From Candidatus Nomurabacteria bacterium GW2011_GWD2_36_14 (GTDB lineage: Bacteria; Patescibacteriota; Minisyncoccia; Phycocordibacterales; UBA9973), in contig LBRL01000001.1 in NCBI GenBank assembly GCA_000991405.1, forward strand, positions 222,172-286,171: a stretch of DNA of 64,000 nucleotides. Direction: 5' to 3'. This document shows, one piece after another, positions 4,832-64,000 of the stretch. How positions within the stretch are numbered: position 1 is the stretch's first letter; each line of letters opens with the position of its first letter. A program made the translations under genes and the position numbers. The notes beneath the pieces are model-generated. The model had not been told where the DNA came from, did no database searches, and saw nothing but the letters and a program-made list of their open reading frames with translations.

Positions 4832-4832
4832 A

Positions 4833-5942: not shown

Positions 5943-7937
5943 ATGTATATAGTAACTGTTATTCCAATACAAAAAGGTTTTCAAGGAGAAAATCTAACTT
6001 ACTTCTCTCCTGTCGAAATTCTTCTAGGAAGTATAGTCTCCATCCCTCTCCGATCTAAAACGAGAGACGCTATCGTCATAAATGTAGAGAATGTACGTGA
6101 TTTGAAATTTGATTTGAAAAAAGCAGACTTTCAACTTAAGAAAATAATAAATATCAAAGGTCCTTCCCCTTTTTCTCCAGCCTTCTTCACAGCTTGCGAG
6201 AAAATGAAAGACTACACTGTCAGTAATACAGGCACAATCATCAAATCACTTCTACCCGCTTTATTTCTAGAAAATTTGAAAGATTTGAAACGAGCAAAAA
6301 AAATAGATGAAGAAGCTAAATCCAACAAAGTTGGATCGCCCGACACTAGAGTAGAAGTGTTTAGGGAAAATATCAAACAAGAGAAATTAATTTTCCAAGC
6401 TCTTATTCCTGACCGTATGAGCTGGTATCGAACTCTGATACGAGAAGCTTTCGCAAAGAAGGAGTCAGTGTTCATATGTGTACCAACCCTTTTTGACATA
6501 GAACAATTCACAATCGAACTTACAAAGGGTATTAGCCAGTACGTCTTCTCCTTCCATGGAGACTTGAGCAAGAAGACACTTATAAATACATATAACTCTT
6601 GCATGGAAGAAACTCATCCAATACTTATCATCGGTACTGGCATGTTCCTATCTATTCCTCGAGAAGATATCCGGACAATTATAATCGAACATGAAAATTC
6701 AGATTCATATAAACAATTTTCTCGTCCGTTTCTCGACATCCGCACTTTCGCAGAGATCCTTTCATCTGTAAATAAAGTTAAGTTAATCTTTGGCGATACA
6801 CTTCTTCGTCCTGATACACTCTATAGACACGATGAAGGAATCCTAGGAGAAGTCGCTTCACCTCTCTTCCGTCTTCCACAAGCTGAGAGGCAAATGGTAG
6901 TAGATATGCGAGAGCAAGTCGACGACAAAGGAGTAAAATCTTTCACTGTATTATCCGATACAACAAAGAAAATGATTGCTTATGCTCTAGAGCACCATGA
7001 ATCCGTCCTTCTCTTCACTGTCCGTAAGGGATTGGCGGGAGTTACTGTATGTCATGATTGTGGATATACTCTTCTCTGTCCTACATGTTCTACTCCTGTC
7101 GTACTTTATGGTTCCAAGCAGAGAAATGCTACAAAGATTGTAAACTCCCGTATCTTCATGTGCAATAAATGTGGGTACAAAGATACAACCGAAGTCAGAT
7201 GTGTAAATTGTCAAAGCTGGAATCTTACCCCTCTGGGTATAGGAACAGATAGAGTATATGAAGAAGTGAAAAGTTTGTACCCCAATGCTAAAATAATCCA
7301 AATAGATAAAGAGACTATCACTTCCAACAAGGAAGCTAGAGGGAAAATGGCTGAATTCTATAAAAATCCCGGAAGCATACTCATAGGTACTGAAATGGTC
7401 TTCTCTTATATCAATACCGAAGTCACCCACAGCGCTATAGTCTCACTTGATGGGCTTCTATCTATACCAAGCTTCAATATCACACAAAAGATTCTTCATA
7501 TAATGGAGAAGCTCCACGAGACGACGAAACGCAATCTCATAATTCAAACTCGCATTCCGGAGAATCCAATACTAGAACATATACTAAACGGCAACGTCTT
7601 ACCTCTTTATCGTGAAGACTTAAAAGAAAGGAAACAATTTGGATACCCACCATTCAAAAGACTTATCAAGATAACCTTTGGAGGTTCTGCCAGTGAGACA
7701 GAGAAGGCACGTGCACACATCGATTCATTACTTGGTGGATATGAGCCACAGATATTTAGCGCCTTCATAGGCAAAGTAAAAGGTCAGTACACTACAAACA
7801 CCGTCATTAAAATAGACCCAAATCTCTGGCCACTACCTATAGACGACAAAAGCATATCAAATACTCACCTTAGAGAAAGTCTACGTAGCCTTCCTCCTGC
7901 ATTTTCTATAAATGTAGACCCCGAAGATTTACTGTAG
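5943..7937 (+). CDS. priA: Primosomal protein N' (PriA) homolog with degenerate ATPase motifs
   Basis: The N-terminus is a 3'-DNA-binding-domain-like VTVIPIQKGF...YFSPV. A Cys-rich zinc-binding region follows (CHDCGY..CPTC....CNKCGY...CVNC). Walker A (GSGKT) is absent and DEEH is replaced by IEHEN. Confidence 0.6.
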   Translation: MYIVTVIPIQKGFQGENLTYFSPVEILLGSIVSIPLRSKTRDAIVINVENVRDLKFDLKKADFQLKKIINIKGPSPFSPAFFTACEKMKDYTVSNTGTIIKSLLPALFLENLKDLKRAKKIDEEAKSNKVGSPDTRVEVFRENIKQEKLIFQALIPDRMSWYRTLIREAFAKKESVFICVPTLFDIEQFTIELTKGISQYVFSFHGDLSKKTLINTYNSCMEETHPILIIGTGMFLSIPREDIRTIIIEHENSDSYKQFSRPFLDIRTFAEILSSVNKVKLIFGDTLLRPDTLYRHDEGILGEVASPLFRLPQAERQMVVDMREQVDDKGVKSFTVLSDTTKKMIAYALEHHESVLLFTVRKGLAGVTVCHDCGYTLLCPTCSTPVVLYGSKQRNATKIVNSRIFMCNKCGYKDTTEVRCVNCQSWNLTPLGIGTDRVYEEVKSLYPNAKIIQIDKETITSNKEARGKMAEFYKNPGSILIGTEMVFSYINTEVTHSAIVSLDGLLSIPSFNITQKILHIMEKLHETTKRNLIIQTRIPENPILEHILNGNVLPLYREDLKERKQFGYPPFKRLIKITFGGSASETEKARAHIDSLLGGYEPQIFSAFIGKVKGQYTTNTVIKIDPNLWPLPIDDKSISNTHLRESLRSLPPAFSINVDPEDLL

Positions 7938-7994: not shown

Positions 7995-8243
7995 ATGATT
8001 ACAGTAATTGAAGTAAAAAAGAATACCAACGAGAGCAATATGAATCTCATTCGCAGATTTAGCCGTAAGGTTTCAGAATCTGGAATTATTCAGAAAGTTA
8101 AAAGCAAGCGTTACAATGAACGTGCTCCATCTAAAGTAAAAGTAAAGATTGCTACCCTTAAGAAAATTAATCGTAGGAAGAATCTTCTAAAGTTACAAAA
8201 GCTTGGAAAGGCTCCATTACCTACAAAGCGGGGACATCGTTAG
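7995..8243 (+). CDS. rpsU: 30S ribosomal protein S21
   Basis: Small basic protein containing IEVKKNE...LIRRFSRKVSESGII...KRYNERAPSKV. Confidence 0.7.
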   Translation: MITVIEVKKNTNESNMNLIRRFSRKVSESGIIQKVKSKRYNERAPSKVKVKIATLKKINRRKNLLKLQKLGKAPLPTKRGHR

Positions 8244-8246
8244 TTT

Positions 8247-8663
8247 ATGCCTAAGGTAGAATCAACAACAATTATAAATTCCACAAAAGGCAAGCTTCCA
8301 CGCTTGCCTTTTGTTTATATCAAGAACGCCATCCTAGGTGAAAGATACGAGCTAGGAGTAAACTTTCTATCTTCACAAAAACAAAAGAAACTAAACCAAA
8401 CATATCGAGGTATTGATAAAACCACAAACATATTATCATTCCCTTTAACTCAAACATCTGGCGACATTACCTTTGATCTAGTAAAAGTTAGGAAGGATGC
8501 TCCTCTCTTTAACATGACATATGGAAAATTCCTTCAATATTTATTCATTCATGGGCTATTGCATTTGAAAGGATTGGATCATGGTGGTATAATGGAGAAG
8601 CAAGAAAAGAAATTTCTAAAGATGTTTTCGGCTAAACATACGGTCGCCCGAAAAATTAAATAA
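8247..8663 (+). CDS. ybeY: rRNA maturation endoribonuclease YbeY
   Basis: HGLLHLKGLDH metal-binding motif. Confidence 0.85.
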   Translation: MPKVESTTIINSTKGKLPRLPFVYIKNAILGERYELGVNFLSSQKQKKLNQTYRGIDKTTNILSFPLTQTSGDITFDLVKVRKDAPLFNMTYGKFLQYLFIHGLLHLKGLDHGGIMEKQEKKFLKMFSAKHTVARKIK

Positions 8664-8686
8664 TTTTTTTAGGGAATAATTTAATA

Positions 8687-9856
8687 ATGATTAAAAATAA
8701 CTTTAACGTTGGTATAGATATAGGTACACATACTATCAAGGTAGTAGTGACCGGCTTCAACAAGGAGACCAACTCCCCTTGTTTACTTGCGACAGGAACT
8801 TCTGATACAGCAGGCATGAGACTAGGATACATTACCAATACCGACCTAGTTGCAGAAAGTCTAAAGAAAGCGGTAAAGCAAGCAGAAGCTACCTTGGGAT
8901 CTAAGATCAAGAAGGCGACGGTATCTATTGGAGGAATAAGTCTAGGTGGAGTCTTCTCTACTGGTTCTGTCATTATATCTCGTGCTGATCAAGAAATAAC
9001 AGAGTTCGACGTATCTAAGGTTCTAGCAACCAGTGAAGAAAATCTAGAAATAATCAATAAGAAAATTATTCACATTATTCCTGTGGCTTACAAACTAGAC
9101 GGCAAAGACATACACGGCAGACCTCTAGGAATGCACGGCATAAAGCTCGAAGTAAAGACTTTGTTCATTACATGCTTAAAGCAAAACATCGATGACCTCA
9201 TAACCGTGCTTGGTCTTGCCAATATAGAAGTGGTAGACGTGATAGCGACACCTGTAGCACTTTCTACAATACTTCTAAACACCAGACAAAAGACAGCAGG
9301 ATGTGCTCTGGTAGATATAGGTGCTGAAAGTGTATCTATATCTGTCTTTGAGAACAACCTACTGGTTTCTCTGCAAGTGTTCTCTATAGGAAGTATGGAT
9401 ATTACAAAGGATATTGCCCTTGGTTTCAAGATAGGACTCGAAGAAGCCGAAAGTGTAAAACTCGGAAGTGTAATCGGAGGAGACTTCCCTAAGAAAAAAG
9501 TAGATGAGATTATAGAAGCAAGACTAGGAGACATATTTGAACTTGTGGAGAATCATTTGAAACGTATCAAGAGAAGCGAACTTCTTCCTGCTGGAGTTGT
9601 AATTACTGGTGGAGGTGCAAATATAGTCCGCATAGAAGAAATTGCCAAGAAGCAACTAAACTTGCCAGCCAAAGTAGGGCCAACTGATACAACTATCAAT
9701 AATAAATTCAAAATTAAAGATTCAACTTGGTATGGAGCATTTGGACTTGCATTAAATTCACCACAAGGGAATAATTCCGCTTCCAATTCTATTGGAGACA
9801 ATGTAAAACAAGTAAAAGGATTTTTCAAATCTATTTTATCTCAGCTTTTGCCATAA
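8687..9856 (+). CDS. ftsA: Cell division protein FtsA
   Basis: Actin-fold N-terminus VGIDIGTHTIKVVV. It is located immediately upstream of ftsZ. Confidence 0.85.
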   Translation: MIKNNFNVGIDIGTHTIKVVVTGFNKETNSPCLLATGTSDTAGMRLGYITNTDLVAESLKKAVKQAEATLGSKIKKATVSIGGISLGGVFSTGSVIISRADQEITEFDVSKVLATSEENLEIINKKIIHIIPVAYKLDGKDIHGRPLGMHGIKLEVKTLFITCLKQNIDDLITVLGLANIEVVDVIATPVALSTILLNTRQKTAGCALVDIGAESVSISVFENNLLVSLQVFSIGSMDITKDIALGFKIGLEEAESVKLGSVIGGDFPKKKVDEIIEARLGDIFELVENHLKRIKRSELLPAGVVITGGGANIVRIEEIAKKQLNLPAKVGPTDTTINNKFKIKDSTWYGAFGLALNSPQGNNSASNSIGDNVKQVKGFFKSILSQLLP

Positions 9857-31774: not shown

Positions 31775-32629
31775 ATGACAACTAAAAATCTAAAATTTGT
31801 ATTCTTTGGTACGCCGATGGTTGCAAGTAAAACGCTTGAGATTATGAAAGAGAAAGGATACTTGCCGTCGCTTATCGTCACCTCTCCTCCTGCCCCATCT
31901 GGACGCGGGCTTCTAATGCACGAAACTCCTGTCGCTCTGTGGGCAAAGGAGAATGGCATAGAGTGTCTTACTCCAGAAAAAATTGATGATGAATTTACTT
32001 TGAAACTTTCAACTTTGAACTTTCAACTTTTTGTGGTTGTTGCTTATGGGAAGATACTACCAGAGACTCTGATAAAAGCCCCTCGTCTTGGTACTATCAA
32101 TATTCACTATTCCCTACTTCCAAAGTACAGAGGCGCTTCCCCTCTAGAAGCAACACTTCTAAATGGAGATGAAGTGACTGGTATTAGTATCCAGCAAATG
32201 GAATACAAGCTAGATAGTGGCAAGATAATAATACAAGAAGAATTAGAAATTGGAATAAACGACACCAAGGAAGAACTCCGCGAAGAGCTCATAAACCTTG
32301 GAGCAAATTGCTTATGCGATATTCTACCAGAGATAGAGTCAGAAAATATTGTCCCCAAACTACAAGATGAATCACAAGTAACCTTCTGTAAGAAAATTAA
32401 GAAAGAAGACGGCGAAATAGATATAAATGGTAACCCAAGAGAGAATTGGAACAAGTATAGGGCTTTCTACGGATGGCCGGGGGTATTCTTCTTTGCTGAA
32501 AGGCATGGAAAGAAGTTGAGAATTAAAATAAAATGGGCATCTTATCAGAACAACTCGTTTGTCATCAAACGAGTTGTTCCTGAAGGAAAGAAGGAAATGA
32601 GCTACGAAGAATTCCTAAAGTGGAATTAA
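31775..32629 (+). CDS. fmt: Methionyl-tRNA formyltransferase
   Basis: FFGTP N-terminus, NIHYSLLPKYRGASP. Confidence 0.9.
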   Translation: MTTKNLKFVFFGTPMVASKTLEIMKEKGYLPSLIVTSPPAPSGRGLLMHETPVALWAKENGIECLTPEKIDDEFTLKLSTLNFQLFVVVAYGKILPETLIKAPRLGTINIHYSLLPKYRGASPLEATLLNGDEVTGISIQQMEYKLDSGKIIIQEELEIGINDTKEELREELINLGANCLCDILPEIESENIVPKLQDESQVTFCKKIKKEDGEIDINGNPRENWNKYRAFYGWPGVFFFAERHGKKLRIKIKWASYQNNSFVIKRVVPEGKKEMSYEEFLKWN

Positions 32630-37802: not shown

Positions 37803-37869
37803 TTTTAATAAAATGTTTTAGGCTTAAATTAAAAAATTCTCTATTAAGAGAAAAGATATAGATGACTAG

Positions 37870-37992
37870 TCTTATCTTTCCACCGCGCCTTGCCGTAGCT
37901 TTATGCGTAGGCAGGTTTGTTGGCTGGATTTAGCACCTTGCTTTAGTAGGTTGCTGATGGGTCATTGAGCCAGTTGCTCTCGCCATACTCCT
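37870..37992 (-). promoter_or_regulatory. SAM-I (S-box) riboswitch in the metK leader
   Basis: Reverse complement reads UUAUCAGGAG..GGCGAGAGCAACUGGCUCAAUGACCCAUCAGCAACC...AAGGUGCUAAAUCCAGCC...GGAAAGAUAAGA. P1 pairs UUAUC/GAUAAG. Downstream there is a UUCUCU-UAAU-AGAGAA-U6 terminator-like hairpin. Confidence 0.8.
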
Positions 37993-38108
37993 GATAATTA
38001 ACTATTTAGTTGTAGATAGATTATAGCATAATATTAAAAATTATCTATTTCAGGGTCATTTTACTTTTCTCCCCTTTTTTGTTAATATACGGAAGTGAGT
38101 TTAAACAT

Positions 38109-39825: not shown

Positions 39826-40188
39826 TTAGTCATATGGACCCTGTGACTTTAAGTCACTTGGTTTAGTAGCCCAATCCTTTGAATGCGTAAGATAGTACTG
39901 ATTACTGACCCATTGTCCTCTACTTTTTGTTTTGGTTATTTTTATAAATCCATATTTTTCTAAGATAGGGAGATGTCTAATAACTGTTCTTGGGTTTATG
40001 TGCAATTCTTCTGATATTAGTACCTCTGATGGGAATGCAATTCTAGTCTTGCTGTTTGAGTGTCTTTTTAGGCAAAGATAGATAGAAGTCCCTATGGGTC
40101 CTATAAGTTTTGCATATTGGTCTATAAATACATTACCCATCTTAAACCAACCTCCATTTTTTGTTTTTATATATTTCAGCTCATTCAT
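39826..40188 (-). CDS. Winged-HTH protein resembling the RepA_N / replisome-organizer N-terminal domain
   Basis: FIDQYAKLIGPIGTSIYLCLKRHSN...ISEELHINPRTVIRHLPILEKYGFIKI. Confidence 0.5.
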   Translation of the reverse strand: MNELKYIKTKNGGWFKMGNVFIDQYAKLIGPIGTSIYLCLKRHSNSKTRIAFPSEVLISEELHINPRTVIRHLPILEKYGFIKITKTKSRGQWVSNQYYLTHSKDWATKPSDLKSQGPYD

Positions 40189-40195
40189 AAATTTA

Positions 40196-40468
40196 TTAAA
40201 TATTAGAATCTAGAGTTGATTCCCTAGGAGCTGACACTAGGGAATCAACTTTAAGTTCCAATTTTTCTTTTTGTTTATCTTCATAATCAAACTTTGCAAG
40301 CAAGTCAAAAAAAGATGAAAGTTCATTCAACTCTTGAATATTTAATTCTTCTTCTGTTGAGCTATCTAATCTCATTGTTAAAATACTGACGACATATTTT
40401 TTCAATCGTCTTAGATAAGGTAAAATTCTTTTTCTGAGATAACTCAGAAAGTTTCTCGTGTAGATCAA
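40196..40468 (-). CDS. Hypothetical protein (90 aa)
   Basis: ORF only. Confidence 0.35.
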   Translation of the reverse strand: MIYTRNFLSYLRKRILPYLRRLKKYVVSILTMRLDSSTEEELNIQELNELSSFFDLLAKFDYEDKQKEKLELKVDSLVSAPRESTLDSNI

Positions 40469-40647
40469 CCACTATACGAATTTGCTTCGTAATTCTTCTT
40501 CTTTTTGCGTGACAAATTATCTTTACCATTTAATAATTATCTCATCACTTATTACTGGTGGTAACTTTCTTTTACCTTCACTCTATATTCACGCAATGTA
40601 AAAAAATAACCCTATTTAATAAGGTTATTTTTACTTGTGGATAAGTA

Positions 40648-41313
40648 CTACTTAATAATTGAGATGGAAAAAATGTATTTATTAAAACAATAGCCAGAAC
40701 CAGCAGGAATAATTAAATTATTTTCTTGCTCAAATTTATCTTCAAAAGATTTGTTTATATTTTTAATAGCAGTAGAAACACTTCGTTCTTCTGAATATCC
40801 AGCTTCTTCTGTTAGTTTAGACATCGTTTTTGGTGATCCTTTTGACAACAATTTTAATATTTCTAGTTTTTTATCACTAACTTTTATTGAATTTTTTGAG
40901 TCTTCCTTAAGAAAAATCAGACCTCGTAAGTCTATACAAACTTTTTGTTTATTATCTTTTTTTGTATACTTTTGTAAAGTAATTGGATTATCTTCTATTT
41001 GATTTTTAAGTAATTCAATTTTTTCTTTTGCTATGCTGGGGGCAATTCTTCTAATTAGTAAATCATCACCTATATTCTCTTCAGAAAAATATTGCTGTTT
41101 ATCTATTAGGATCAGTTTTTCAAGTACTTTCGATAAATTATTTAAGTCTTGCATAGTAACACCATAAGCATTCAATGAATAAAGGGGTATTCTAGTATTA
41201 GAAGAAAAACCAGGAAAACCTTTTTGGTAATTTTCAATAAGGTTTACAACTTGTAACATTTTATCACAGTCTTCTTTTGTTAGTTTAGGTGTATTGATAA
41301 TATATTCTTCCAT
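40648..41313 (-). CDS. DNA-binding protein with C-terminal OmpR/PhoB-type winged helix, no receiver domain
   Basis: VSDKKLEILKLLSKGSPKTMSKLTEEAGYSEERSVSTAIKNINKSF. Confidence 0.45.
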   Translation of the reverse strand: MEEYIINTPKLTKEDCDKMLQVVNLIENYQKGFPGFSSNTRIPLYSLNAYGVTMQDLNNLSKVLEKLILIDKQQYFSEENIGDDLLIRRIAPSIAKEKIELLKNQIEDNPITLQKYTKKDNKQKVCIDLRGLIFLKEDSKNSIKVSDKKLEILKLLSKGSPKTMSKLTEEAGYSEERSVSTAIKNINKSFEDKFEQENNLIIPAGSGYCFNKYIFSISIIK

Positions 41314-41861
41314 ATTAAAGATAATCTCATTTTTTTAGGTTTTTGTCGACAATTTTTTATTTAATTGAGTCAAAGAAATGCGACCTTTTGCGACCCATTA
41401 TATTTATCGATATTTTATAAGACTCTTTAATCTAATAATTTCTTATTGGAATTAAATATACTTCCACAAAATATCTTGTAAATAAATGACATTCTGATCA
41501 TACCCATACTAAAATACCGAGTTTTGCCTAGTCCTAAAATGCCACCTTTTGCCACCCACTCTTCCCGCCTTTTCCCACCCCTTTTCACCTCTAATACATC
41601 AGACTTTTTCAGACTTTTTATAAAAGAATCTATTTATTGTATTTGTCGACAAAAAGAGCTATTATAAAAATACAACGCCTAAACCAGAAATGGCATGGCT
41701 ACATAGGAAACCCACGCAAATAGTAATGGCCTCACAGTCATCACCATTTGCGTGGGTCCATATTCGAAAGAGTATGGGGTGTTCTCGAAAGAGGATATCA
41801 GATGGTCTGTGGGGCCTTTACTGTCTTCATAACCATATTATAAATTAAAAACCCACGCAAA
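41314..41861. promoter_or_regulatory. AT-rich noncoding region with palindromes and direct repeats (candidate operator/iteron-origin region of the element)
   Basis: TTGTCGACAA palindrome twice (about 41341 and 41643). AAACCCACGCAAA twice, forming a 12-bp inverted repeat at 41710-41762. A CCACC(T)TTT pyrimidine-repeat tract. Confidence 0.5.
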
Positions 41862-42848
41862 ATGAAAAAAATACAAATAATTTGTTTAATTGTTTTTTGT
41901 TTTCTTTCTTTTAGTATCGCCCGTGCAGAAACTTTGATTATAAAATCAGTGGATAAAAGAATAGAAGATATTGAAAAATCTCGAGAGAAACTTCAAAAAG
42001 ATATTGAAAATAATTATAAACAAGTTCAAGCTGAATTAAAAAGTTTAAGTGCAAGAATAGACACTAATATAAAAAGTGAATTTTATTGTGTATTACCAAC
42101 TCAAACTTGCACGGAATCTATCTATCAAGGTATTAGAGGAACTGCCATATCGAGTGGTCTTATTCCAGATGCTGGTCAACTTGCTCAATGCAGAGCTAAG
42201 ATTGATGAATATAATACAAAATTACAGGAATATAATAAATGTTTTCAAGATTGGCAAAATAAAAAGATTGGAGATTCGGCTCAAAAAGAATACGATTATC
42301 AATTGCAAGTATATGAATTAAAATCACAATTAGCCTGTATGGATAAAGAAGGACACTATTCGTCTTTCAATAAAATAACTAAACAATGTGAGTGTGTAGA
42401 AGGTTCAACATTCGTCAACGGAAAATGCATAAATCGTATAGATAATCTACTTATGTGCGTAAAAACTTTTGGTCCATTATCTCATTATGATTACGACAAA
42501 GCTGGTTGTGTATGTGATGAGGGTAGTAAATTAGATCTCGAAAAAGATCTATGTGTTGCTGAAACAGAAAAAGTAGTACCTCCCCCAGTAAAAGAAAAAT
42601 CTCCCTATAAGAATAAATTTCAGGAAATTTTACAACAAAAGGAAACTGAACAACCCTTAAAACCCTCTCAAGGGCTTAAAGAAAGTCCCAAGAGCATAAT
42701 TACTGTTGTAGAGGAGAAAGTACCTTCACAGGCTGAAATTACCCCAAATACTTCGCATGATATACAACCTCCAGCTATTACAGGTCCATCAAATGTAACA
42801 TTCTGGCAAAAAATTAAAAAAAACTTCTTGAAAATTAAGTTTTGGTAA
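41862..42848 (+). CDS. Secreted Cys-rich protein with N-terminal coiled-coil (signal peptide)
   Basis: Signal peptide MKKIQIICLIVFCFLSFSIARA and multiple C..C pairs. Confidence 0.5.
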   Translation: MKKIQIICLIVFCFLSFSIARAETLIIKSVDKRIEDIEKSREKLQKDIENNYKQVQAELKSLSARIDTNIKSEFYCVLPTQTCTESIYQGIRGTAISSGLIPDAGQLAQCRAKIDEYNTKLQEYNKCFQDWQNKKIGDSAQKEYDYQLQVYELKSQLACMDKEGHYSSFNKITKQCECVEGSTFVNGKCINRIDNLLMCVKTFGPLSHYDYDKAGCVCDEGSKLDLEKDLCVAETEKVVPPPVKEKSPYKNKFQEILQQKETEQPLKPSQGLKESPKSIITVVEEKVPSQAEITPNTSHDIQPPAITGPSNVTFWQKIKKNFLKIKFW

Positions 42849-42858
42849 AAATACTTTT

Positions 42859-43122
42859 ATGAAAATTAACCTATTATTTTGGATATTTATACTAATAGCT
42901 TTCATTGGAACATTTTTATATTATCTAGGAGAAACAAGGAAGAATAATATCGGTGAGGTCATTAAGTTTTCTGGAGGAATTATTACATTTGGTATTCTAA
43001 TATCCTCATTCTTTTTATTAGAATGGAAGGCGTCATTCTTGCTTATTATTGGCGAATTCACAATAATCAGTTTTTTATCAACTTTACTTGTTGAATCTAT
43101 GACAAAGAGACGTATAAATTAA
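42859..43122 (+). CDS. Small membrane protein (3 TM)
   Basis: ORF with hydrophobic helices. Confidence 0.4.
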   Translation: MKINLLFWIFILIAFIGTFLYYLGETRKNNIGEVIKFSGGIITFGILISSFFLLEWKASFLLIIGEFTIISFLSTLLVESMTKRRIN

Positions 43123-43127
43123 ATATT

Positions 43128-43541
43128 ATGGAAAAATTAAAGGGGCTGATAATTAGTGTATTACAAGAAGAACAAACTAATCATATGAATAAACAAAAAA
43201 GAATCAAGGAGTTGGTATTGGCTATCGTTTTAACAATTTTACCAATTTTTATATTTATAATAATGCCTGCATTAGAAGATAAATACTTTGACTTGTTTTC
43301 TGGGCGTTTGATGTACCTAAGTCAAGATTATTATTTTTCTTTTTCCCCACTTTTTATCTTTGATTTGCCTTACTTTTTTACCCCAATAATATCAGCTTTG
43401 GCAGTATGGTTTTGTCTTAAAATTAGAAAAAGTATAGAAAATAGAAGTTCATTTTTTAACTACCTTAATCTCGTCTTAATTGTTTTGAATAGTGTTTTTT
43501 CCTTATATTCCTTATGGTTTTTATTGTTATTTTATAAATAA
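43128..43541 (+). CDS. Membrane protein (4 TM)
   Basis: ORF with hydrophobic helices. Confidence 0.4.
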   Translation: MEKLKGLIISVLQEEQTNHMNKQKRIKELVLAIVLTILPIFIFIIMPALEDKYFDLFSGRLMYLSQDYYFSFSPLFIFDLPYFFTPIISALAVWFCLKIRKSIENRSSFFNYLNLVLIVLNSVFSLYSLWFLLLFYK

Positions 43542-43597
43542 AAATCTAAAATCGTAGTATTATTTGATAATTTATTATTTTCGTATACAATATACAT

Positions 43598-44572
43598 ATG
43601 GCAAAAGAAGAAAAGCAGATTATCGAGAATAATTCAAAAAATGGTGTAAATGAAAAGATACCAAATAATGAAGATTCTGCTCAAAATAAGAAAGTCGAAG
43701 AAGAAATATCTCCTCTTAAAAAATTATTAAAGAAGAGTGATGTTTTGCTTATGTTATACCCAAAAGACATAAATGGAAATTTTTCAGCCAGCATTGATCC
43801 TGAAGATGAAATTTCTATTTATAAACTTTTGAAGGAAAAGAAGGAGAAGAAAAAAGAACTTTTAATTTTATTAGATACAAGTGGTGGTAATGTATATTCG
43901 GCGGTTAAAATAATGGATACATTAAGAACCCAATATAATCAAATAAATATTGCAATACCGCAGGAAGCTAAAAGTTCTGGAACTATGATGTGTTGTGGTG
44001 CTAATAATTTAATAATGAGTTCTATCTCTGAACTTGGACCATTAGATAAGCCAATGATTCATCCTAATGATGAGACAGCAAGAATCTCTGCTTTAGATAT
44101 TATTAAATCTATCGATGGCATGTTGGATACTGCACAACAAAGAGAAAAAGATTTTGCCAAAGAGGTAAATAATGATTTTGGAATACCTATTAAACAAAGT
44201 TTGCAATTAGCAAGTGAATCAATCTCTAAACTAATATCACCTATGTTGTGTAGAGAAGATGTAAAAATCTATAATCAAGCCCAAAGATTACTTGTTATAG
44301 CCCAGAAATACGCCACTGAACTATTAGACGCACATATGTTAAAATATATTGATCGTAAAAAACTTAAAGAGAGAATTATTGATATGACTACTAGGCAGTT
44401 GATATGGGCATATCCTGACCATAGTTTTGCTATTAGACGAGATGAATTGAGAGAATGGTTTTTTATTGTAAAAAATTCTGAAGATGTTGATTATTGGGAC
44501 GAACTTTGGGATAAATTTTATCAAAATATAGGTTATAAAAATAGTAAATTGATTAAATTTTTAGATAATTAA
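43598..44572 (+). CDS. ClpP/crotonase-fold serine peptidase, SDH (serine dehydrogenase proteinase)/S49-like
   Basis: ILLDTSGGNVYSAVKIMDTLR...IPQEAKSSGTMMCCGANNLIMSSISELGPLDKP matches the lhTpGG...A.SaGT.ia.aAdei.M....lGpiDP pattern. Confidence 0.55.
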   Translation: MAKEEKQIIENNSKNGVNEKIPNNEDSAQNKKVEEEISPLKKLLKKSDVLLMLYPKDINGNFSASIDPEDEISIYKLLKEKKEKKKELLILLDTSGGNVYSAVKIMDTLRTQYNQINIAIPQEAKSSGTMMCCGANNLIMSSISELGPLDKPMIHPNDETARISALDIIKSIDGMLDTAQQREKDFAKEVNNDFGIPIKQSLQLASESISKLISPMLCREDVKIYNQAQRLLVIAQKYATELLDAHMLKYIDRKKLKERIIDMTTRQLIWAYPDHSFAIRRDELREWFFIVKNSEDVDYWDELWDKFYQNIGYKNSKLIKFLDN

Positions 44573-44583
44573 GATATAATTTT

Positions 44584-44790
44584 ATGAACATTGCAATATT
44601 AACAAAATTTAATATGGATGAAAAAGATACACTACCCTTAGATAGCGGTAATAACGATGAATTTCCTATGAGTGTTAGCGAAAAATTAGTAAGAAATGAA
44701 GTGAGAAAATTGACTGAAAATTCTAAAGAAATAAAAAAACTAAAGGAACAAATTGAGAAAAAGAATAACAAAAATAAGAGTGATTTATAA
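44584..44790 (+). CDS. Small hypothetical protein
   Basis: ORF only. Confidence 0.3.
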   Translation: MNIAILTKFNMDEKDTLPLDSGNNDEFPMSVSEKLVRNEVRKLTENSKEIKKLKEQIEKKNNKNKSDL

Positions 44791-44847
44791 TATTCTAATT
44801 TAATAGGTCGATAAGTTTAATATATTTAAGTAATTTTAATAAAAAAT

Positions 44848-45045
44848 ATGTCAGGTAAAAATAGGATAATTATAAAAAAATCAACAAATAAACAAAAATA
44901 TGTTGTATTAAAATCAGCTAATAATAAGACTATAGCAAATACGGAAACATATAAAAGTAATCAGAGTGTAGATAAAGCAGTTAAAGCTCTAAAAAAGATT
45001 GTTAAAAATGCTATCATTGTAGATCAGACTAAAAAAGAGAAGTAG
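44848..45045 (+). CDS. YegP/DUF1508-family protein
   Basis: IIIKKSTNKQKYVVLKSANNKTIANTETYKSNQSVDKAVKALKK. Confidence 0.6.
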   Translation: MSGKNRIIIKKSTNKQKYVVLKSANNKTIANTETYKSNQSVDKAVKALKKIVKNAIIVDQTKKEK

Positions 45046-45149
45046 AATTATTAAACTAATAGTGATCTTATTTCAGCTAATGCGATATTTGGGAAAGGAT
45101 ATTCTTTGGCCCAATCAATAGTTATAAAATCGTCCGTTAGGGCGAGCCA

Positions 45150-45554
45150 ATGAAAGAGGCAGTTATAAGTTTGATAAGTGTCATAGTGGGAGCCATTATA
45201 GGTCTAATGGGTACTTTTTTATCTTCATACTTTCAGAATAAGATTTGGAAGAAAGAAAAACAGATTGAACATTTAAAAGCTAAAAAAGAAAATCTAGAAA
45301 ATAAATACGAGAAATATATCAAAGAGTTATATCTTTCTATGGAAAAGAATGGCAATTTTGATGCTGAACTGTTTCTAGAGGGTCTATACTCTTTCCCGAA
45401 AAATGTCAAAGACTCAATTTATAAACTAACTAAATTAAAAACAGGTAAAGAAAATCTGGAGGAACTTAAGCAAGCTAATTGGTGTATAATCGAAGAAATG
45501 AAAAAATCATTAGTTGAAATTGATATCGAAATAAAAAAGAAAATTGATGATTAA
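45150..45554 (+). CDS. Membrane-anchored coiled-coil protein
   Basis: N-terminal TM helix followed by a coiled-coil. Confidence 0.4.
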   Translation: MKEAVISLISVIVGAIIGLMGTFLSSYFQNKIWKKEKQIEHLKAKKENLENKYEKYIKELYLSMEKNGNFDAELFLEGLYSFPKNVKDSIYKLTKLKTGKENLEELKQANWCIIEEMKKSLVEIDIEIKKKIDD

Positions 45555-45677
45555 CTTGTGCAAATCATAATCCGAGAATCTTCGCATGTTAGGAGTAGCA
45601 AGGATGGTCCTTGCTACTCTGTTACTATTCTTCTTTATACCTAAATGATTTTTTATATTATGTTATAATATACTCAT

Positions 45678-45875
45678 ATGAAATATTTTAAAAAAGCACT
45701 GTTTATTTGTTTTATAGTCTCACTTATTTTCTCTTTGTTTTGGACAATCGGAAAGTTTTTTAATTCTGATATGCCTATGCTTGATAGACAAACTTATTCT
45801 ATAATGTCTGGATTAAAATACCTTACAGCCATTGCTTTATATATAGCTTGGAGAGTTACACCAGACCATAAGTAA
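45678..45875 (+). CDS. Small 2-TM membrane protein
   Basis: ORF with hydrophobic helices. Confidence 0.35.
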   Translation: MKYFKKALFICFIVSLIFSLFWTIGKFFNSDMPMLDRQTYSIMSGLKYLTAIALYIAWRVTPDHK

Positions 45876-45980
45876 GTATTAGTTAGTTGTTGTGAATTAT
45901 CAAGGATGGTCTTTGATAGTTTCAGCAAGCAAATGAATTTTAAAAAATAAAACTCGACAAAGTCTGAAACAATGCCGAGT

Positions 45981-46367
45981 TTATTTTGCAAAAATTTTTT
46001 TTGTAATTAGATAACTCACGATCGACAATATGACAGTGATAAATATTTGTGCAATTAAATATTTTAAGTTTATATATTCAACTAGTAAATATAAAAATAT
46101 ACTATTTGCACAAAGCAGTACTCCTGACATAATAAAATACCGGAGAATCTGTTTGGGAATTTCTTTTTTGTCTTTATTATCAAAAGTCCAATACTTCTGA
46201 AACAAAAAACTGGATGTATAAGATAAGATAGAACCAATTGCCGCAGATATCGGATACCAAATTTCAACGAACTCAGTTAAACAATAAAGCGTTAGATAAT
46301 ATAATCCTACACATATAATTCCACTTATACCAAATTTTGCAATCTTTGGGATTTTTTTAGTTTTCAA
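45981..46367 (-). CDS. GtrA-family membrane protein
   Basis: 4 TM helices. FQKYWTF resembles the GtrA FxxNRxWTF motif. Confidence 0.55.
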   Translation of the reverse strand: MKTKKIPKIAKFGISGIICVGLYYLTLYCLTEFVEIWYPISAAIGSILSYTSSFLFQKYWTFDNKDKKEIPKQILRYFIMSGVLLCANSIFLYLLVEYINLKYLIAQIFITVILSIVSYLITKKIFAK

Positions 46368-46525
46368 TATAGCCTCCTTTTTTCTTCATACTAATTGATA
46401 ATTCCCCAAAAAGCAATTTTTAATCGCGTTTCTCTTTTAAAAAGTTCCAACTTCATTCTAAATTTGAAACCTCAATTTTAACCCTATAATTCAAAACCCC
46501 TACCCTTTTATCAAATTCTAACCTA

Positions 46526-46936
46526 TTGACTTTACAAGTTGAAAAATGTAATGTGAAAGAAAAATTGTCTAACTCTAAAATAAAATATGTTATGAAAAGT
46601 ATTCTTGTAATTACCATTCTAGACAGAAATGAAGATCTAATTGAGCAATTCATGGCCGTAGGCATAGAAACACACATCTCAGTATTTTTCTATAGACCGG
46701 AGAATGAAAGAAATCTATTAGATCGTATTAAAAAAAGTCGTCCAGCTATGATAATAATGGACGGCAGGATACATCCATTAACACTGGAAAATATCTACGA
46801 CAGTATTTTCAATACTCTTGGTGTATATGACATGGATTCTAATATCTATGCCATTAAAAAAGAAGTTCATCTACCAGGAGTAATTAATACAAAAATAGAA
46901 AATTTTGTAAAAATATGGGAAGAGTCGCGAAAGTGA
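46526..46936 (+). CDS. Hypothetical protein
   Basis: ORF, followed by a hairpin that shares GAGTAGCAAGGA with the hairpin at 45590. Confidence 0.35.
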   Translation: MTLQVEKCNVKEKLSNSKIKYVMKSILVITILDRNEDLIEQFMAVGIETHISVFFYRPENERNLLDRIKKSRPAMIIMDGRIHPLTLENIYDSIFNTLGVYDMDSNIYAIKKEVHLPGVINTKIENFVKIWEESRK

Positions 46937-47087
46937 CTCTTTTTGTTTTTATCTTACCTAAAGAGTAGCAAGGACGATTCTCGTTACTCTTTCTTTCCAC
47001 CCTAGTATCTATATTTTTCAAAAGGTATACACTTAAGACAAATCTACACAAATTCTAAATTTAATTTAACCTACTAAATTTATTATT

Positions 47088-47321
47088 ATGAAAAATGTAA
47101 CAATTTGTCTCTCTTGTGCAGATGTGTGCAAGAATGGAGTTTTTGTTAAAAGCGAAAAAGAAATAGCTAAATTATGGTTGCTGACATTTCGTAAACCTAA
47201 AGCAGATATAGATATAGTTATCTATGTTTGCCCAGAATGTTACAGATCCTTTCCAAGGGAATATTTGGAAGCGATAAAAATGAAATATTATGAGAAACAG
47301 CTAGAACAAACTTCAGGATGA
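47088..47321 (+). CDS. Small zinc-ribbon protein
   Basis: CLSC...CPEC Cys pairs. Confidence 0.4.
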   Translation: MKNVTICLSCADVCKNGVFVKSEKEIAKLWLLTFRKPKADIDIVIYVCPECYRSFPREYLEAIKMKYYEKQLEQTSG

Positions 47322-47801
47322 AGTTTGTTCTTTCATTTAATTTAACCAATTTACTTGGGTAAATTTAAAGGGCAACTTTTGTTGCCCTAGGGGTTTATAC
47401 TTTTTTTAATAATTTTAATGAAATTTTTTCAATTAATTCAATTCTTGGACTAGGATCAAGTTGTGAGACATTAAAGCCTTCGGGTAAATCACCAGAATAA
47501 ATTTCCTGATAAAATTTAAGAATTTTTTGAGAAACAATAGGATACATTCTAATAATTTCATCGGAGAATTTTTCAATTCCTAAATTGGTGACAATAGGTT
47601 TTCTGTCATTTTCTGTATAAGCAAAATATGTCTTTTCCCCATTTAAACCCTTACTAAAAATAATGATTCCTTCACTAGTTTCAGTTGTTCCTATAAATTT
47701 AGTTTTTTAAAAAGTGAATATTTGGTTTAATTATAATCTTTTATTTTATAACTAGCAATACAAGAGTTTACGACTCCTCTTTTGATTGCTATACTAATAC
47801 T

Positions 47802-48011
47802 ATGCAAAAAACAGCTACAAAAATCTTCATTTATTCATCAATCGTTTTCGGAATTATCGGAATACTGGTTGTTGTGACTGGTTCTGGACCAGATGCTCCA
47901 GATTCAAATATTAGTAAAATATTGATTAGACTTCTATTTGCAACGGTATTTGTCATCTTGCCTTCATTCGCATTAAGTATTGCTAGCAAATACTTGAACG
48001 ATAAATCTTAA
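47802..48011 (+). CDS. Small 2-TM membrane protein
   Basis: ORF only. Confidence 0.35.
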   Translation: MQKTATKIFIYSSIVFGIIGILVVVTGSGPDAPDSNISKILIRLLFATVFVILPSFALSIASKYLNDKS

Positions 48012-61004: not shown

Positions 61005-61098
61005 ATTTCGAGAGAAGCTATTAAAAAAATCTAGAACTCTAATATATAGATAGATATGAAAAACACCATGCTTTGGACAAGGTGTTTTTCATATATTT

Positions 61099-61412
61099 GG
61101 TTTGTATCTATAAGCCGGGTTCTGTTCCCTATTGCTAGAGTAATAGATATTTATCTAGGATGTAAATTACTCCACACCTCAAGCGATTCAAATTCTGGCA
61201 TAAAGCCAGAAAGTACGATCTTGCACACGCGTAAGTATTTTGCCGTTTCACCCGAACACTAATTTTCATTAATGTTCGATTCGTCTCTGTTCGCAACTCT
61301 ACCCTTACGGGCGACGGGCGTTACCCGCTACGTTTAATCAAGCAAAAGCTTGAATATGTGCCCGGACTTTCCTCACCCTAATAAATTAAGGCGCATCTAT
61401 CCAATACAAACC
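61099..61412 (-). ncRNA. rnpB: RNase P RNA (compact, about 314 nt)
   Basis: P4 strands GAGGAAAGUCCGGGCAC (reverse complement of 61358-61378) and ACAGAACCCGGCUUA (reverse complement of 61111-61125). P1 pairs GGUUUGUAU/AUACAAACC. A TTGTCA-17-TACAAT promoter lies upstream on the minus strand. Confidence 0.8.
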
Positions 61413-61477
61413 TGATTATATTGTATCAGATGTTATAGGGCTTGACAATACCAATTTATTTTGCTATACTGTCCTTA

Positions 61478-61572
61478 GTGAGATTAAGTTCCAACGTTCA
61501 GTACAAATTTATTTTACTGTAACAATTGCATAGCAAAACCCCATCGAGCAATCGGTGGGGTTTTGTATTTTG
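61478..61572 (+). ncRNA. Candidate small RNA, divergent from rnpB
   Basis: Near-consensus promoter TTGACA-17bp-TATACT (61442-61470). A strong terminator ACCCCAUCGAGCAAUCGGUGGGGU plus a U-run follows (61535-61572). No ORF. Confidence 0.35.
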
Positions 61573-61679
61573 TACCAAAATGTTATGATATAGAGGTGGC
61601 AGTCGTTGTGTGTTTAAGTCAGCGGCTGCACTCACATATGCAATTGTGTTGGAGGTTAGCACCCGCTGACTTTAGCACA

Positions 61680-61727
61680 TAACAGAAAATCATCTCAAGA
61701 CTTGAGATGATTTTCTGTTATGTATTA
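61680..61727 (-). terminator. Long perfect hairpin, the terminator of the 61728-62975 gene
   Basis: acataacagaaaatcatctcaag-ac-ttgagatgattttctgttatgt. Confidence 0.65.
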
Positions 61728-62975
61728 TTACTTCTTCGTAGATTTCTTTTCAGTAATTTCTGGCTTTGGATCTATGCTTAAGTCACTTTCAGGTTTTGAA
61801 TTTCCAAAAAGTGCCGACATTAATTCTTTTCCTTCAATGCTTCCTTCCGGAACTTCTACAACAGCAGGCTGGTCTAAACTAGAGTAGAGCATTGTCATTG
61901 ATATCTTGAGAGCTTCAATATCTTTACTTTCTTTATCTACGATATCTCCACTCACTACTAGCTTGTGAGGAATATGGTCGAATATTCCAATCCAGATTTC
62001 TCCGTGAAAATTATTTAAAGATTCTATAATTTTGGCATAGTCGGAATCTGTTACCAAGGATAATTCTTTGCCATTTTCTGTATTCCTTAGATAGATAAGC
62101 ACCTCTTTCAAGTATGAAGCCACTCCTTCTTTGTCTAAGTCAAAGTTAAAATGATAAGACAAAGATCCATCCACTATTGCTGGTAAATGTTTTTTTGTCA
62201 TCTTGATAAGGCTAGCTCTACTCGTAATATCGTAGATCTTTTGCTTCTGTTCTGGGGTTAAATTATTCACTATTTTTGAGCCAAATCCAGAGGAAGATAT
62301 TAGTGGATTGTTGCTTATGTCACCTAGGCTAGACTTTCGAGGGAAAACGATCCACTGATTCTCAAGTGGCTTTAATGAGATACTTCCTAGATTGGGAGCT
62401 TTGAGTAACTTCACGTAGAGTGAGCCATTAACAATGCGAGAATCCATGGAAGCTTCCTCGCCATCCAATTTCAAAACGAAAGAAGTATCTGACTTTAAAT
62501 TATTCTTATCTATAAGATCAAATGAACCTTTCATGGCCAAATCAATAACTTTAAACCCTTGGTCTGTATTAGTCTCCACTCCTACATGTGATGATTCAGC
62601 AACAATATGCATATCAATAGTAGAAGCTTTAGAATTCCTTGAGGTGTCTAATGATTCTCCAAGTAATTTCGAAGGGAATATAAAATAGCCAGATCCATAC
62701 GCAAGAGCTACGCCACTTATGATAAATATTAAGATAATGATTGGCAATAGAAGGCTAGAAACCTTCTTCTTGGACTGAAGAAATATAACCTTGGGTGTTT
62801 TGTTTATTACTGGTGCAACTGTAGCTACATTTGGCTTGTTCTCAATAATATTGAAAACATCTATTATATCTCCCGCACTCCAACCTTCTGCTTCTAGCTT
62901 AGTAGCAATAGTCTTCCTATCTAGCCCAGAGGCAAGCTCATTTTTCACAAATTGTATAAGTTCTGGTGTTGTCAT
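61728..62975 (-). CDS. Hypothetical single-pass membrane protein with large extracytoplasmic domain (415 aa)
   Basis: ORF with a TM helix at about aa 75-95. Confidence 0.45.
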   Translation of the reverse strand: MTTPELIQFVKNELASGLDRKTIATKLEAEGWSAGDIIDVFNIIENKPNVATVAPVINKTPKVIFLQSKKKVSSLLLPIIILIFIISGVALAYGSGYFIFPSKLLGESLDTSRNSKASTIDMHIVAESSHVGVETNTDQGFKVIDLAMKGSFDLIDKNNLKSDTSFVLKLDGEEASMDSRIVNGSLYVKLLKAPNLGSISLKPLENQWIVFPRKSSLGDISNNPLISSSGFGSKIVNNLTPEQKQKIYDITSRASLIKMTKKHLPAIVDGSLSYHFNFDLDKEGVASYLKEVLIYLRNTENGKELSLVTDSDYAKIIESLNNFHGEIWIGIFDHIPHKLVVSGDIVDKESKDIEALKISMTMLYSSLDQPAVVEVPEGSIEGKELMSALFGNSKPESDLSIDPKPEITEKKSTKK

Positions 62976-63024
62976 AAAATTAATTTAATATAATAAATAT
63001 ACTATCTATTATAACATTAAAACA

Positions 63025-63060
63025 AAAAACATCTCAATAGCTTGAGATGTTTTTTGTTTT
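63025..63060. terminator. Bidirectional terminator-like hairpin in the 16S trailer, upstream of the 62975 gene
   Basis: aaaacatctcaatagcttgagatgtttttt. It shares CATCTCAAnnnTTGAGATG with the hairpin at 61700. Confidence 0.55.
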
Positions 63061-63299
63061 GTATTTATATAGTTTGTACCCCCACACCCATATTTTTATA
63101 ACTGTTTACAGCGAAGATTTTAATCTTCAATAAAAATATAAGTGTGGGGGTGTATCAATAATCCATTTAAGTAAAGCACTCTTTCTTTTGTTCCGTCCTA
63201 CAGGTCTTTCCCTTGTTGTCAGATTTCTTTTAGGACTTAAAATCAATGTCCATTGTGTAGTCAATTGAGCTACACAATATCGACTCAATAAGATCGTCT

Positions 63300-64000
63300 C
63301 ACTTCATAAATGAAGGTAAGAGATCGATTTCAAATTGAATTATTCCACGAACAGCTTCCGCTACCCGTGCCTTGTTACGACTTATTCCCTGTCACCGAGC
63401 TTACTGTAGGCCCTCCTTCTGGAGAGATTTCGAGTATTCCCGGCTCCCTTGAATTGACGGGCGGTGAGTACAAGACTTGAGAACGTATTCACCGCGGTAT
63501 GTCTGACCCGCGATTACTAGTAATTCCAACTTCATGGGGTCGAGTTGCAGCCCCCAATCCGAACTGGCGCAATTTTTATAGGATTCGCTCAGGGTTACCC
63601 CGTCGCTGCCCGTTGTAATTGCGATTGTATTATGTGTGTAGCCCAAGGTATCAAGGGACATGCTGACCTGGCGTCATCCTCCCCTTCCTCCCCGACCGAA
63701 ACGTACAAATAGTTATAAAGTTTTATAAAGTGTAAAGTTATAAAGTGAATGCAAAATGCATTTTACTTTATGAACTTTATGAACTTTTAACTTTCAACTT
63801 TTATCCGCTTGGGTCGGGGCAGTCTCGTGTGACACTTATAACACACGACGAGGGTTGCGTTCGTTACCCCACTTAAGGGAACAATTCAAACCACGAACTG
63901 ACGACGGCCATGCATCACCTGTCAACTAGTCTTGCGAGGGCCCTGGTTTCTCAGGGCTTTCACGTTGATTTCTAACCTTGGTAAGGTTCTTCGTTTATCG
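63300..64000 (-). rRNA. rrs: 16S rRNA gene, 3' two-fifths (continues past window end); 3' end approximate
   Basis: Reverse complement contains AAGUCGUAACAAGG, UGUACACACCGCCCGUCA and GGAGGAAGG...GAUGACGUCA (universal 1390-1500 and 1175-1200 regions). An AT-rich insertion of about 110 nt lies at 63715-63830. Confidence 0.9.

Follow-up and report, generated by a model that had tools for sequence, protein, structure and literature searches.

An A/U-rich tandem-repeat hairpin in 16S rRNA helix 40 of a Nomurabacteria-like bacterium as a probable copy of a dispersed palindromic repeat family

Intervening sequences (IVSs) that RNase III removes from ribosomal RNA (rRNA) without religation are found in helices 25 and 45 of the 23S rRNA in Salmonella, Yersinia, Campylobacter, Leptospira and Coxiella, and more rarely in the 16S rRNA, as in Helicobacter canis, Campylobacter and Caedibacter. 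To our knowledge, helix 40 of the 16S rRNA is not a described IVS site. Bacterial genomes also carry dispersed palindromic repeats and MITE-like repeats (MITE, for miniature inverted-repeat transposable element), among them REP/BIME, ERIC, RUP, Correia and the Rickettsia palindromic elements. In eukaryotes, rRNA expansion segments evolve through compensatory slippage (Hancock and Dover 1990; summary in PMC1888808). In the candidate phyla radiation (CPR), 139 of 378 16S insertions are short and contain neither an intron nor an open reading frame (ORF), and an RNase III-type IVS has been proposed for some of them, according to the accessible part of Tsurumaki et al. 2024 (PMC11270868). Here we analysed a 64,000-nt stretch of Candidatus Nomurabacteria bacterium GW2011_GWD2_36_14 (contig LBRL01000001.1, positions 222,172 to 286,171; hereafter the window), in which a 106-nt hairpin element extends helix 40 of the 16S rRNA gene. 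Judging by its sequence, this segment is one copy of a dispersed family of hairpin-forming palindromic repeats, and we give a probability of roughly 0.55 to the reading that the hairpin is cut out of the mature rRNA as an RNase III-type IVS.

Like the rRNA IVSs, the window element replaces the tip of a surface helix with an extended stem-loop of ~100 nt that is richer in A/T, is sporadic among close relatives, contains no catalytic RNA and is tolerated in the single-copy rRNA gene of a reduced genome. It differs from them in its arms, which consist of short tandem repeats, and in the presence of the same element in helix 6, spacers and RNase P RNA; furthermore, excision and fragmentation are properties of the classical IVSs and putative in the window element. 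With eukaryotic expansion segments it shares a helix tip of variable length, repeat motifs matched by complementary motifs, and a conserved base below a diverse distal part, but it is bacterial and A/U-rich, changes between 16S genes that are 99% identical, has copies at unrelated loci and is only putatively retained. The resemblance to REP/MITE-type repeats lies in a length of about 80-110 bp, a fully palindromic and non-coding sequence and several copies per genome in relatives, and, as with the Rickettsia palindromic elements, copies can lie inside genes of functional molecules without destroying them. Unlike REP/MITE-type repeats, the window element has tandem-repetitive arms, no target-site duplication was found, a single copy lies in the 64-kb window, and the known sites are helix tips of structured RNAs and rRNA spacers. 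The element would therefore work like an rRNA IVS or expansion segment while looking like a REP-/MITE-type palindromic repeat. It falls into the same class as the short ORF-less 16S insertions of Rifle-series CPR, under 200 bp and without an intron model match, as these are described in the accessible part of Tsurumaki et al. 2024 (PMC11270868).

The host is a Nomurabacteria-like CPR bacterium with a single 16S rRNA gene, which carries the element; the nearest 16S sequences belong to metagenome-assembled genomes (MAGs) labelled Candidatus Nomurabacteria, Paceibacteria or Parcubacteria. The window holds the 3' part of this gene, which is 5' truncated at the window end (bacterial small-subunit rRNA, 419.9 bits, model positions 955-1533), and the complete gene of 1618 nt is found in locus L002 at 8026-9643 (Rfam, 1329 bits). 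The features of the extended helix, with the fold being that of minimum free energy (MFE) and the tandem repeats those of Tandem Repeats Finder (TRF) and a repeat finder, are as follows.

63333-64000, minus strand: 3' part of the 16S rRNA gene (Rfam RF00177)
63808-63817, minus strand: 5' strand of the basal stem of the extended helix 40, RNA CCGACCCAAG (pairs with 63692-63701 in the MFE fold; covariation)
63692-63701, minus strand: 3' strand of the basal stem of the extended helix 40, RNA UUUCGGUCGG (MFE fold; covariation)
63702-63807, minus strand: 106-nt hairpin element, in place of the 22-32-nt distal helix 40 of relatives (comparison with L041, L064, L030 and L045)
63764-63807, minus strand: 5' arm of the RNA, five AAAGU units at 7-9-nt spacing (GAUAAAAGUUGAAAGUUAAAAGUUCAUAAAGUUCAUAAAGU), an ACTTT array on the plus strand (TRF, repeat finder; array scan 63764-63801)
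63748-63763, minus strand: apex, the small palindrome AAAUGCAUUUUGCAUU forming a terminal mini-hairpin (fold; inverted repeat)
63702-63747, minus strand: 3' arm of the RNA, four ACUUU units (CACUUUAUAACUUUACACUUUAUAAAACUUUAUAACUAUUUGUACG), complementary to the 5' arm (fold, repeats; array scan 63716-63746)

We found that helix 40, between the conserved GAGACUGCC and GGAGGAAGG, spans 126 nt (63692-63817) as opposed to 10-11 nt in ordinary bacteria and normal relatives. In the Rfam alignment, 119 unmatched nucleotides replace a 4-nt model loop at positions ~1157-1162, which is helix 40 of a CPR (Nomurabacteria-like Parcubacteria) 16S gene, in agreement with an earlier note on this DNA that had placed the insertion in the hairpin corresponding to E. 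coli helix about 1160-1175. The flanks quoted in that note, CCCGACC-CAAGCGG ... CGUUUCGGUCGGGG, are present, whereas the conserved 3' block reads GAUGACGCCA and not GAUGACGUCA, and the A+T content, put there at ~85%, is 80% in the 101-nt core, 75% in the 114 nt within the CCGACC/GGUCGG stem and 70% over all 126 nt. For comparison, the G+C content is about 50% in the flanking rRNA and about 36% in the genome. The tandem units that the note listed are real, with TRF reporting ACTTTATGA x2.6 plus TTATAAAGT-type units and the repeat finder TTATAAAGTN x3 and ACTTTATGA x2, but they had been quoted on the plus strand next to flanks in the rRNA (minus-strand) sense, and it had gone unrecognised that they are the two complementary arms of one long hairpin, with AAAGU-type units in the 5' arm of the rRNA and ACUUU-type units in its 3' arm. 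A shuffled window would be expected to contain 0.08 arrays of at least three AAAGT or ACTTT spaced 6-11 nt apart.

As the repeat units of the two sides are complementary, they form one unbranched A/U-rich hairpin of ~50 bp, with 49 base pairs in the 126-nt segment and 52 predicted in the 151-nt fold with flanks. With an MFE of -50 kcal/mol (z = -7.18), it was matched in stability by 0 of 200 dinucleotide shuffles; the only irregularities in the MFE and centroid structures are 1-nt bulges and small internal loops at the base. The insert matches no Rfam family (best E = 0.35), and no intron family reaches the gathering score in the window. The ORFs there are of 22-55 aa, mostly within conserved rRNA and none of them meaningful, in keeping with the earlier statement that the segment has no ORF. 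The 415-aa protein encoded next to the gene occurs in the same context in GCA_000991485.1 (LBRP01000001.1; Rifle groundwater CPR series) and in four further independent assemblies, and the 126-nt segment is identical in 5/5 of these assemblies, which come from different samples and pipelines, and is therefore no assembly artefact.

The related loci that we compared were all chosen around 16S genes. Upon BLAST searches of the helix 40 inserts against all fetched loci, we observed matches outside helix 40. A strict hairpin scan, requiring at least three AAAGT and then at least three ACTTT within 60 nt, returned 12 hairpins in 1.13 Mb of related loci: five in helix 40, three in helix 6 at 91-95 nt from the 16S 5' end (L061, L068, L109), two in the leader or upstream of the 16S gene (L061, L161), one 49 nt past the 16S 3' end (L102) and one in an RNase P RNA, where it replaces a 4-nt loop (L055; cmscan 63.3 bits, E = 7.9e-19, 96-nt insertion). 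The RNase P RNA of L055 carries two AAAGT/ACTTT hairpins (6482-6565 and 6712-6802) and falls under the Rfam gathering score (63 bits) because of these two insertions; that of L021 is also oversized, at 460 nt (4444-4903). For control, we screened 1.09 Mb of viral loci that had been picked for their AAAGT arrays and found 0 hairpin arrangements; all 120 matches are plain tandem repeats, and there is therefore no sign of a phage origin.

A model of the family, R1, was built from 16 copies including that of the window, and uses sequence only because RNAalifold gave no consensus pairs, the repeat arms not being alignable in register. R1 matches the window element at 59.3 bits, as expected by construction, and recovers the strict-scan copies together with one in the trailer of L053, two in L094, the second one in the L055 RNase P RNA and one in L039. 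The copies are not grouped by site: the one in the window is nearest to a copy from helix 6 (80%), followed by one from RNase P RNA and one from helix 40 (76% each). Three copies were counted in L061 and two or more in each of L102, L068, L055 and L094. In L102, the copies in helix 40 and in the internal transcribed spacer have the common apex AAAAAUUUGCUUYGCAAAUUUUU, in L061 those in helix 6 and in the leader share AUGCRGAUGCAU, and the two copies of L094 are 91% identical. Such genome-specific apexes common to different sites require copying between sites, by transposition or gene conversion, and rule out independent slippage in place as their source. The whole element is an imperfect palindrome, and many copies start with (C)TAGTN-AAAAGT and end with ACTTTNN-ACTA(G), that is, with terminal inverted repeats; it appears to sit as if at the centre of a pre-existing palindrome.

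Two further repeats deserve mention. A one-arm trace of five ACTTT with a 7-nt period lies at 31996-32030 (plus strand) of the window, inside the ORF of the methionyl-tRNA formyltransferase fmt (31775-32629; Formyl_trans_N/C); it has no complementary array nearby and a weak R1 match (E ~5e-4), and could be due to chance or a remnant. Additionally, a second, G+C-rich hairpin family (CCUCACCCC...CUCUCC-loop-GGAGAG...GGGGUGAGG) behaves like the AAAGU family in having copies both inside helix 40 and at other places of the same genome or of related ones, namely in L038 (3324-3349 and helix 40), L155 (helix 40) and L105 (4337-4377).

When comparing close relatives, with flank identity computed over 660 nt of 16S flanking sequence, we find helix 40 to be 46 nt long in L041 and in L064 (each ~99% identical), 43 nt in L045 (97%) and 42 nt in L030 (96%). 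All four have the window's base sequence CCGACCYAAG...UUUNGGUCGG, 42-46 nt in total, and the window therefore has 106 nt (63702-63807) where these relatives have 22-32 nt. More broadly, relatives with 96-99% identical 16S have either a helix 40 of 42-52 nt or hairpins of 111-136 nt made of other units (AAUUACC, GGUUUUU). When metagenomes were scanned for an organism-specific motif located 5' of helix 40, 49 further loci were obtained; they brought in close relatives, whereas this organism's 16S did not turn up in a spliced or truncated form. Where the 16S gene is at least 98% identical to that of the window, helix 40 is 45-52 nt long in some cases, while others have 111 nt of AAUUACC-type heptads with the apex GAUGCAAAUGCAUU, 115 nt with GGUUUUU / GCAAACA units, or 116 nt. 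AAAGU hairpins closely like that of the window are found in L085, L013, L113, L068, L061, L094 and L102, the 16S genes of which are only 86-93% identical. As near relatives lack the AAAGU hairpin and distant ones have it, the segment, which to the earlier note looked like a lineage-specific expansion segment, is not lineage-specific in the sense of vertical inheritance, nor is it a purely local outgrowth, with the same hairpin type present at helix 6, in leader and trailer and in RNase P RNA. The long hairpin is, by this comparison, recent, sporadic and hypervariable.

Across the clade, one genome per species was scanned for a 27-nt motif lying directly 3' of helix 40, which gave 120 loci. With these included, there were 125 oriented loci (115 distinct genomes), and lengths were measurable in ~119 of them. 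Twenty-six loci have a helix 40 of 9-10 nt (CCCUCACGGG-like) and about 45 loci one of about 37-61 nt; in the remaining ones its length ranges from 76 to about 290 nt, where the longest values are unreliable (for example, L125 is wrongly delimited and was left out of later counts). Helix 40 is an insertion hot spot in this clade. Segments of 33-61 nt were single hairpins in 47/47 cases (median z -6.9) and those of at least 76 nt in 24/38 (median z -9.8). In 99 distinct extended sequences, the 12 nt at either end form a basal helix with 89% of its cells paired, 12/12 pairs changed on both sides and a covariation score of 0.76, against 0.22 in shuffles and 0.07-0.22 with the partner slid. By this covariation, the ~10 bp added at the base of helix 40 are a genuine RNA helix under selection in the clade, and the window sequence has the same basal stem, CCGACCCAAG / UUUCGGUCGG. 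Pair 10 of this stem (63692-63701/63808-63817 in the window) is a conserved G.U in 72/99 sequences and G-C in 21/99, next to a poorly paired internal loop, and the conserved G.U may serve as a recognition or cleavage landmark.

We also compared the folding of the two strands. In the short forms, the sense RNA was the more stable one in 61/67 cases, with 162 G.U pairs in sense and 24 in antisense (p = 1.7e-11), and in the long forms in 45/53 cases, with 272 and 124 G.U pairs, respectively (p = 4.6e-8). When 24 nt were removed from each end of the long forms, sense remained more stable in 35/53 (140 and 81 G.U pairs; p = 0.0015). Mere DNA palindromes would fold alike on both strands, and the better folding of the sense strand therefore points to selection on the RNA. 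Sense-strand foldability would be needed for processing and for harmless protrusion alike.

In the reading that we prefer, the course of events would begin at the DNA level with an element derived from another copy or swapped in by recombination, followed by fast turnover in which replication slippage is compensated on the opposite arm. The RNA would then fold by itself into an A/U-rich duplex of ~50 bp stacked on the conserved 10-bp basal stem, at a surface site tolerant of insertions, so that folding of the 3' major domain would be left undisturbed. A double-strand-specific endonuclease of the RNase III type would cut the duplex from the precursor without religation, and the mature 16S rRNA would be split into fragments of roughly 1.14 kb and 0.37 kb, which the basal stem and ribosomal proteins would keep together. 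The element shares with known IVSs that extra sequence stands in place of a terminal rRNA helix loop of its homologues, that it is a double-stranded stem-loop of more than about 20 bp (49 base pairs) and that it is sporadic among close relatives. A duplex of ~50 bp is a natural substrate of RNase III. Published RNA-seq work reports that comparable small insertions of a Rifle Parcubacterium are missing from its RNA (PMC5220378), and the accessible part of Tsurumaki et al. 2024 (PMC11270868) describes the removal of CPR rRNA insertions from transcripts. It is on account of the RNA-seq reports on comparable insertions (PMC5220378) that we lean against retention.

Several observations weigh against an excised copy of a dispersed repeat. 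We infer excision by analogy with other small insertions, and the enzyme in the same manner, while no RNase III signature motif was found in a six-frame translation of the 64-kb window; moreover, selection for sense-strand pairing and a covarying base agree equally well with a helix that is retained. With respect to the family, the 16S-centred choice of loci biases the apparent preference for stable-RNA genes, and multi-copy status applies to related genomes only, with one full copy found in the 64-kb window by searches for 20-25-nt pieces with at most 3 mismatches, by the array scan and by R1. No target-site duplication was detected, the flanks of the copies being complementary, as a continuation of the host hairpin, rather than direct repeats, and the helix 40 copy looks like a replacement of the distal hairpin and not like a clean insertion. 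Finally, no transposase was identified, no search aimed at transposases having been made.

Next in standing, and possible though clearly less probable than excision, is retention of the hairpin as an expansion segment, that is, a solvent-exposed extension of helix 40 that changes by compensatory slippage and has little or no function. Some bacterial 16S insertions have been reported to stay in the rRNA (Clostridium paradoxum, Desulfotomaculum). The near-continuous distribution of helix 40 lengths, from 37 to about 290 nt and including a populous class of 42-48 nt that surely stays in the rRNA, fits retention, and so does the better folding of the sense RNA, which holds even distally. The same is true of the helix being conserved through compensatory change, with 10-12 covarying basal base pairs, and of the complementary tandem units on both arms, which are the signature of compensatory slippage (concept in PMC1888808). 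Furthermore, a Tn5-derived insertion at 1153-1162 (h39/h40) leaves the E. coli 16S rRNA functional and growth at the wild-type level (PMC2441807). Slippage in place cannot, however, account for the same element with a genome-specific apex at unrelated sites, a near-perfect duplex of ~50 bp is an ideal RNase III substrate, and the transcript data on small insertions of Rifle Parcubacteria report their absence from the RNA (PMC5220378).

A more speculative combination, to which we assign a rather low likelihood, is that a mobile hairpin colonises the apical loops of structured-RNA genes (helices 6 and 40 and RNase P RNA) and the rRNA spacers of Nomurabacteria-like CPR and is retained in the mature RNAs. 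These would be eukaryote-style expansion segments growing in real time by selfish palindrome insertion and compensatory slippage, visible between 16S genes that are 99% identical.

Quite unlikely, in our assessment, is a functional RNA module kept by selection, in which the AAAGU/ACUUU duplex or the apex would bind a protein or RNA in 30S maturation near the YbeY/Nob1 site, in host attachment or in regulation. In E. coli, YbeY can be cross-linked to the loop of helix 40 (nt 1167), and Nob1 binds to the corresponding site in yeast (PMC5995498); a role of helix 40 in 3'-end maturation is conceivable but unsupported. Such a module would agree with the selection for the RNA fold, with the 7-nt period that prevails in the arms of many long forms in many lineages although the unit sequences are unrelated, and with the AUGCA-N3-UGCAU-type apex, the type to which the window's apex belongs, that recurs in 8/45 long helix 40 hairpins with differing arm repeats. 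It is hard to reconcile with relatives whose 16S is 98-99% identical and which have no element or have unrelated units, with the minimal helix 40 of 9-10 nt in 26 loci of the clade and with the hypervariable length and sequence, and copies in spacers and RNase P RNA make a common function hard to imagine.

An intron, whether group I, group II or of the archaeal bulge-helix-bulge type and whether self- or enzyme-spliced, is very improbable. Introns are frequent in CPR rRNA genes according to the accessible part of PMC11270868, and related 16S genes are broken by large insertions beside small hairpins (L094 1476-6326, L061 2755-2868, L109 5094-8000), with a group I intron match in L094 and a group II D1-D4 match in L061. 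The window segment, at 106-126 nt, is far below the size of a catalytic intron, as the earlier note had rightly held for group I; it has no Rfam intron match at gathering or E-value thresholds, forms an unbranched hairpin without symmetric 3-nt bulges and sits at a helix tip rather than at a conserved core site, and an intron is thereby effectively refuted. An assembly or chimera artefact, to which low-complexity palindromes are prone, is practically negligible given the 126 nt identical in five independent assemblies from different samples and pipelines and the homologous hairpins at the same site in many unrelated MAGs.

As such, A/T-rich insertions without an ORF are a documented phenomenon of CPR 16S genes, and the earlier note was correct that such insertions are common in this group (PMC9297842 and the accessible part of PMC11270868). 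In their accessible parts, the surveys of CPR 16S insertions classify them by site, intron type and ORF, and we found there neither a family of tandem-repeat hairpins spanning several sites and RNase P RNA nor a helix 40 that is hypervariable at the species level; likewise, the helix 40 site is not named in the accessible part of Tsurumaki et al. 2024 (PMC11270868). Relative to this portion of the literature, three aspects appear to be new: the tandem-repeat hairpin family common to helix 40, helix 6, spacers and RNase P RNA, its turnover between 98-99% identical 16S genes, and the strand asymmetry as evidence for selection on the RNA. Of the catalogued CPR 16S insertions, more than a third are short and ORF-less; these had been left uncharacterised, and at least one class of them is now a recognisable hairpin family. 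The resulting model, in which selfish palindromes would enter essential RNA genes and be made harmless by excision or by protrusion from a permissive surface, is testable and may offer a bacterial analogue for the birth of expansion segments. In practical terms, the length of helix 40 has no value as a character for the phylogeny of this clade, and its variation can break amplicon-length assumptions, chimera checks and 16S alignments.

Regarding the surroundings of the gene, the order is tRNA, 16S, the 415-aa ORF (no Pfam match), RNase P RNA and SecA (window 61095-63332, minus strand; L002 7357-7429). The window's own RNase P RNA (61095-61412) is without such hairpins. No full 23S gene was found near ~170 related 16S genes (loci of ~8 kb), with one weak 23S motif match in L010, and the rRNA genes therefore appear to be unlinked clade-wide. 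The same 16S gene also has an extended helix 6, with 39 nt compared with 4 in the model (L002 8090-8150, outside the window), and this extension is an ordinary hairpin with no AAAGU repeats.

The 16S 3' end (63333-63350, minus strand) is without the CCUCC anti-Shine-Dalgarno motif and reads GGAAUAAUUCAAUUUGAA. This motif has been lost in about half of Parcubacteria (PMC9297842), and it is missing in all of the loci L007-L126 save one Peribacteria MAG, at any helix 40 length. A tie between helix 40 length and anti-Shine-Dalgarno loss was accordingly rejected, the whole clade being without CCUCC at every length. Two hairpins lie in the 16S trailer, one of ~70 nt with CCCCCACAC/GUGUGGGGG as its clamp (63080-63150) and another at 63020-63062 that is perfect and resembles a bidirectional terminator. 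Elsewhere in the window, we observe a SAM riboswitch at 37869-38000 (minus strand, 48.9 bits), a LOOT RNA at 41676-41799 (plus strand, 60.8 bits) and a stretch from 40 to 48 kb (40000-48000) with a clearly lower G+C content, at 0.29 compared with ~0.36.

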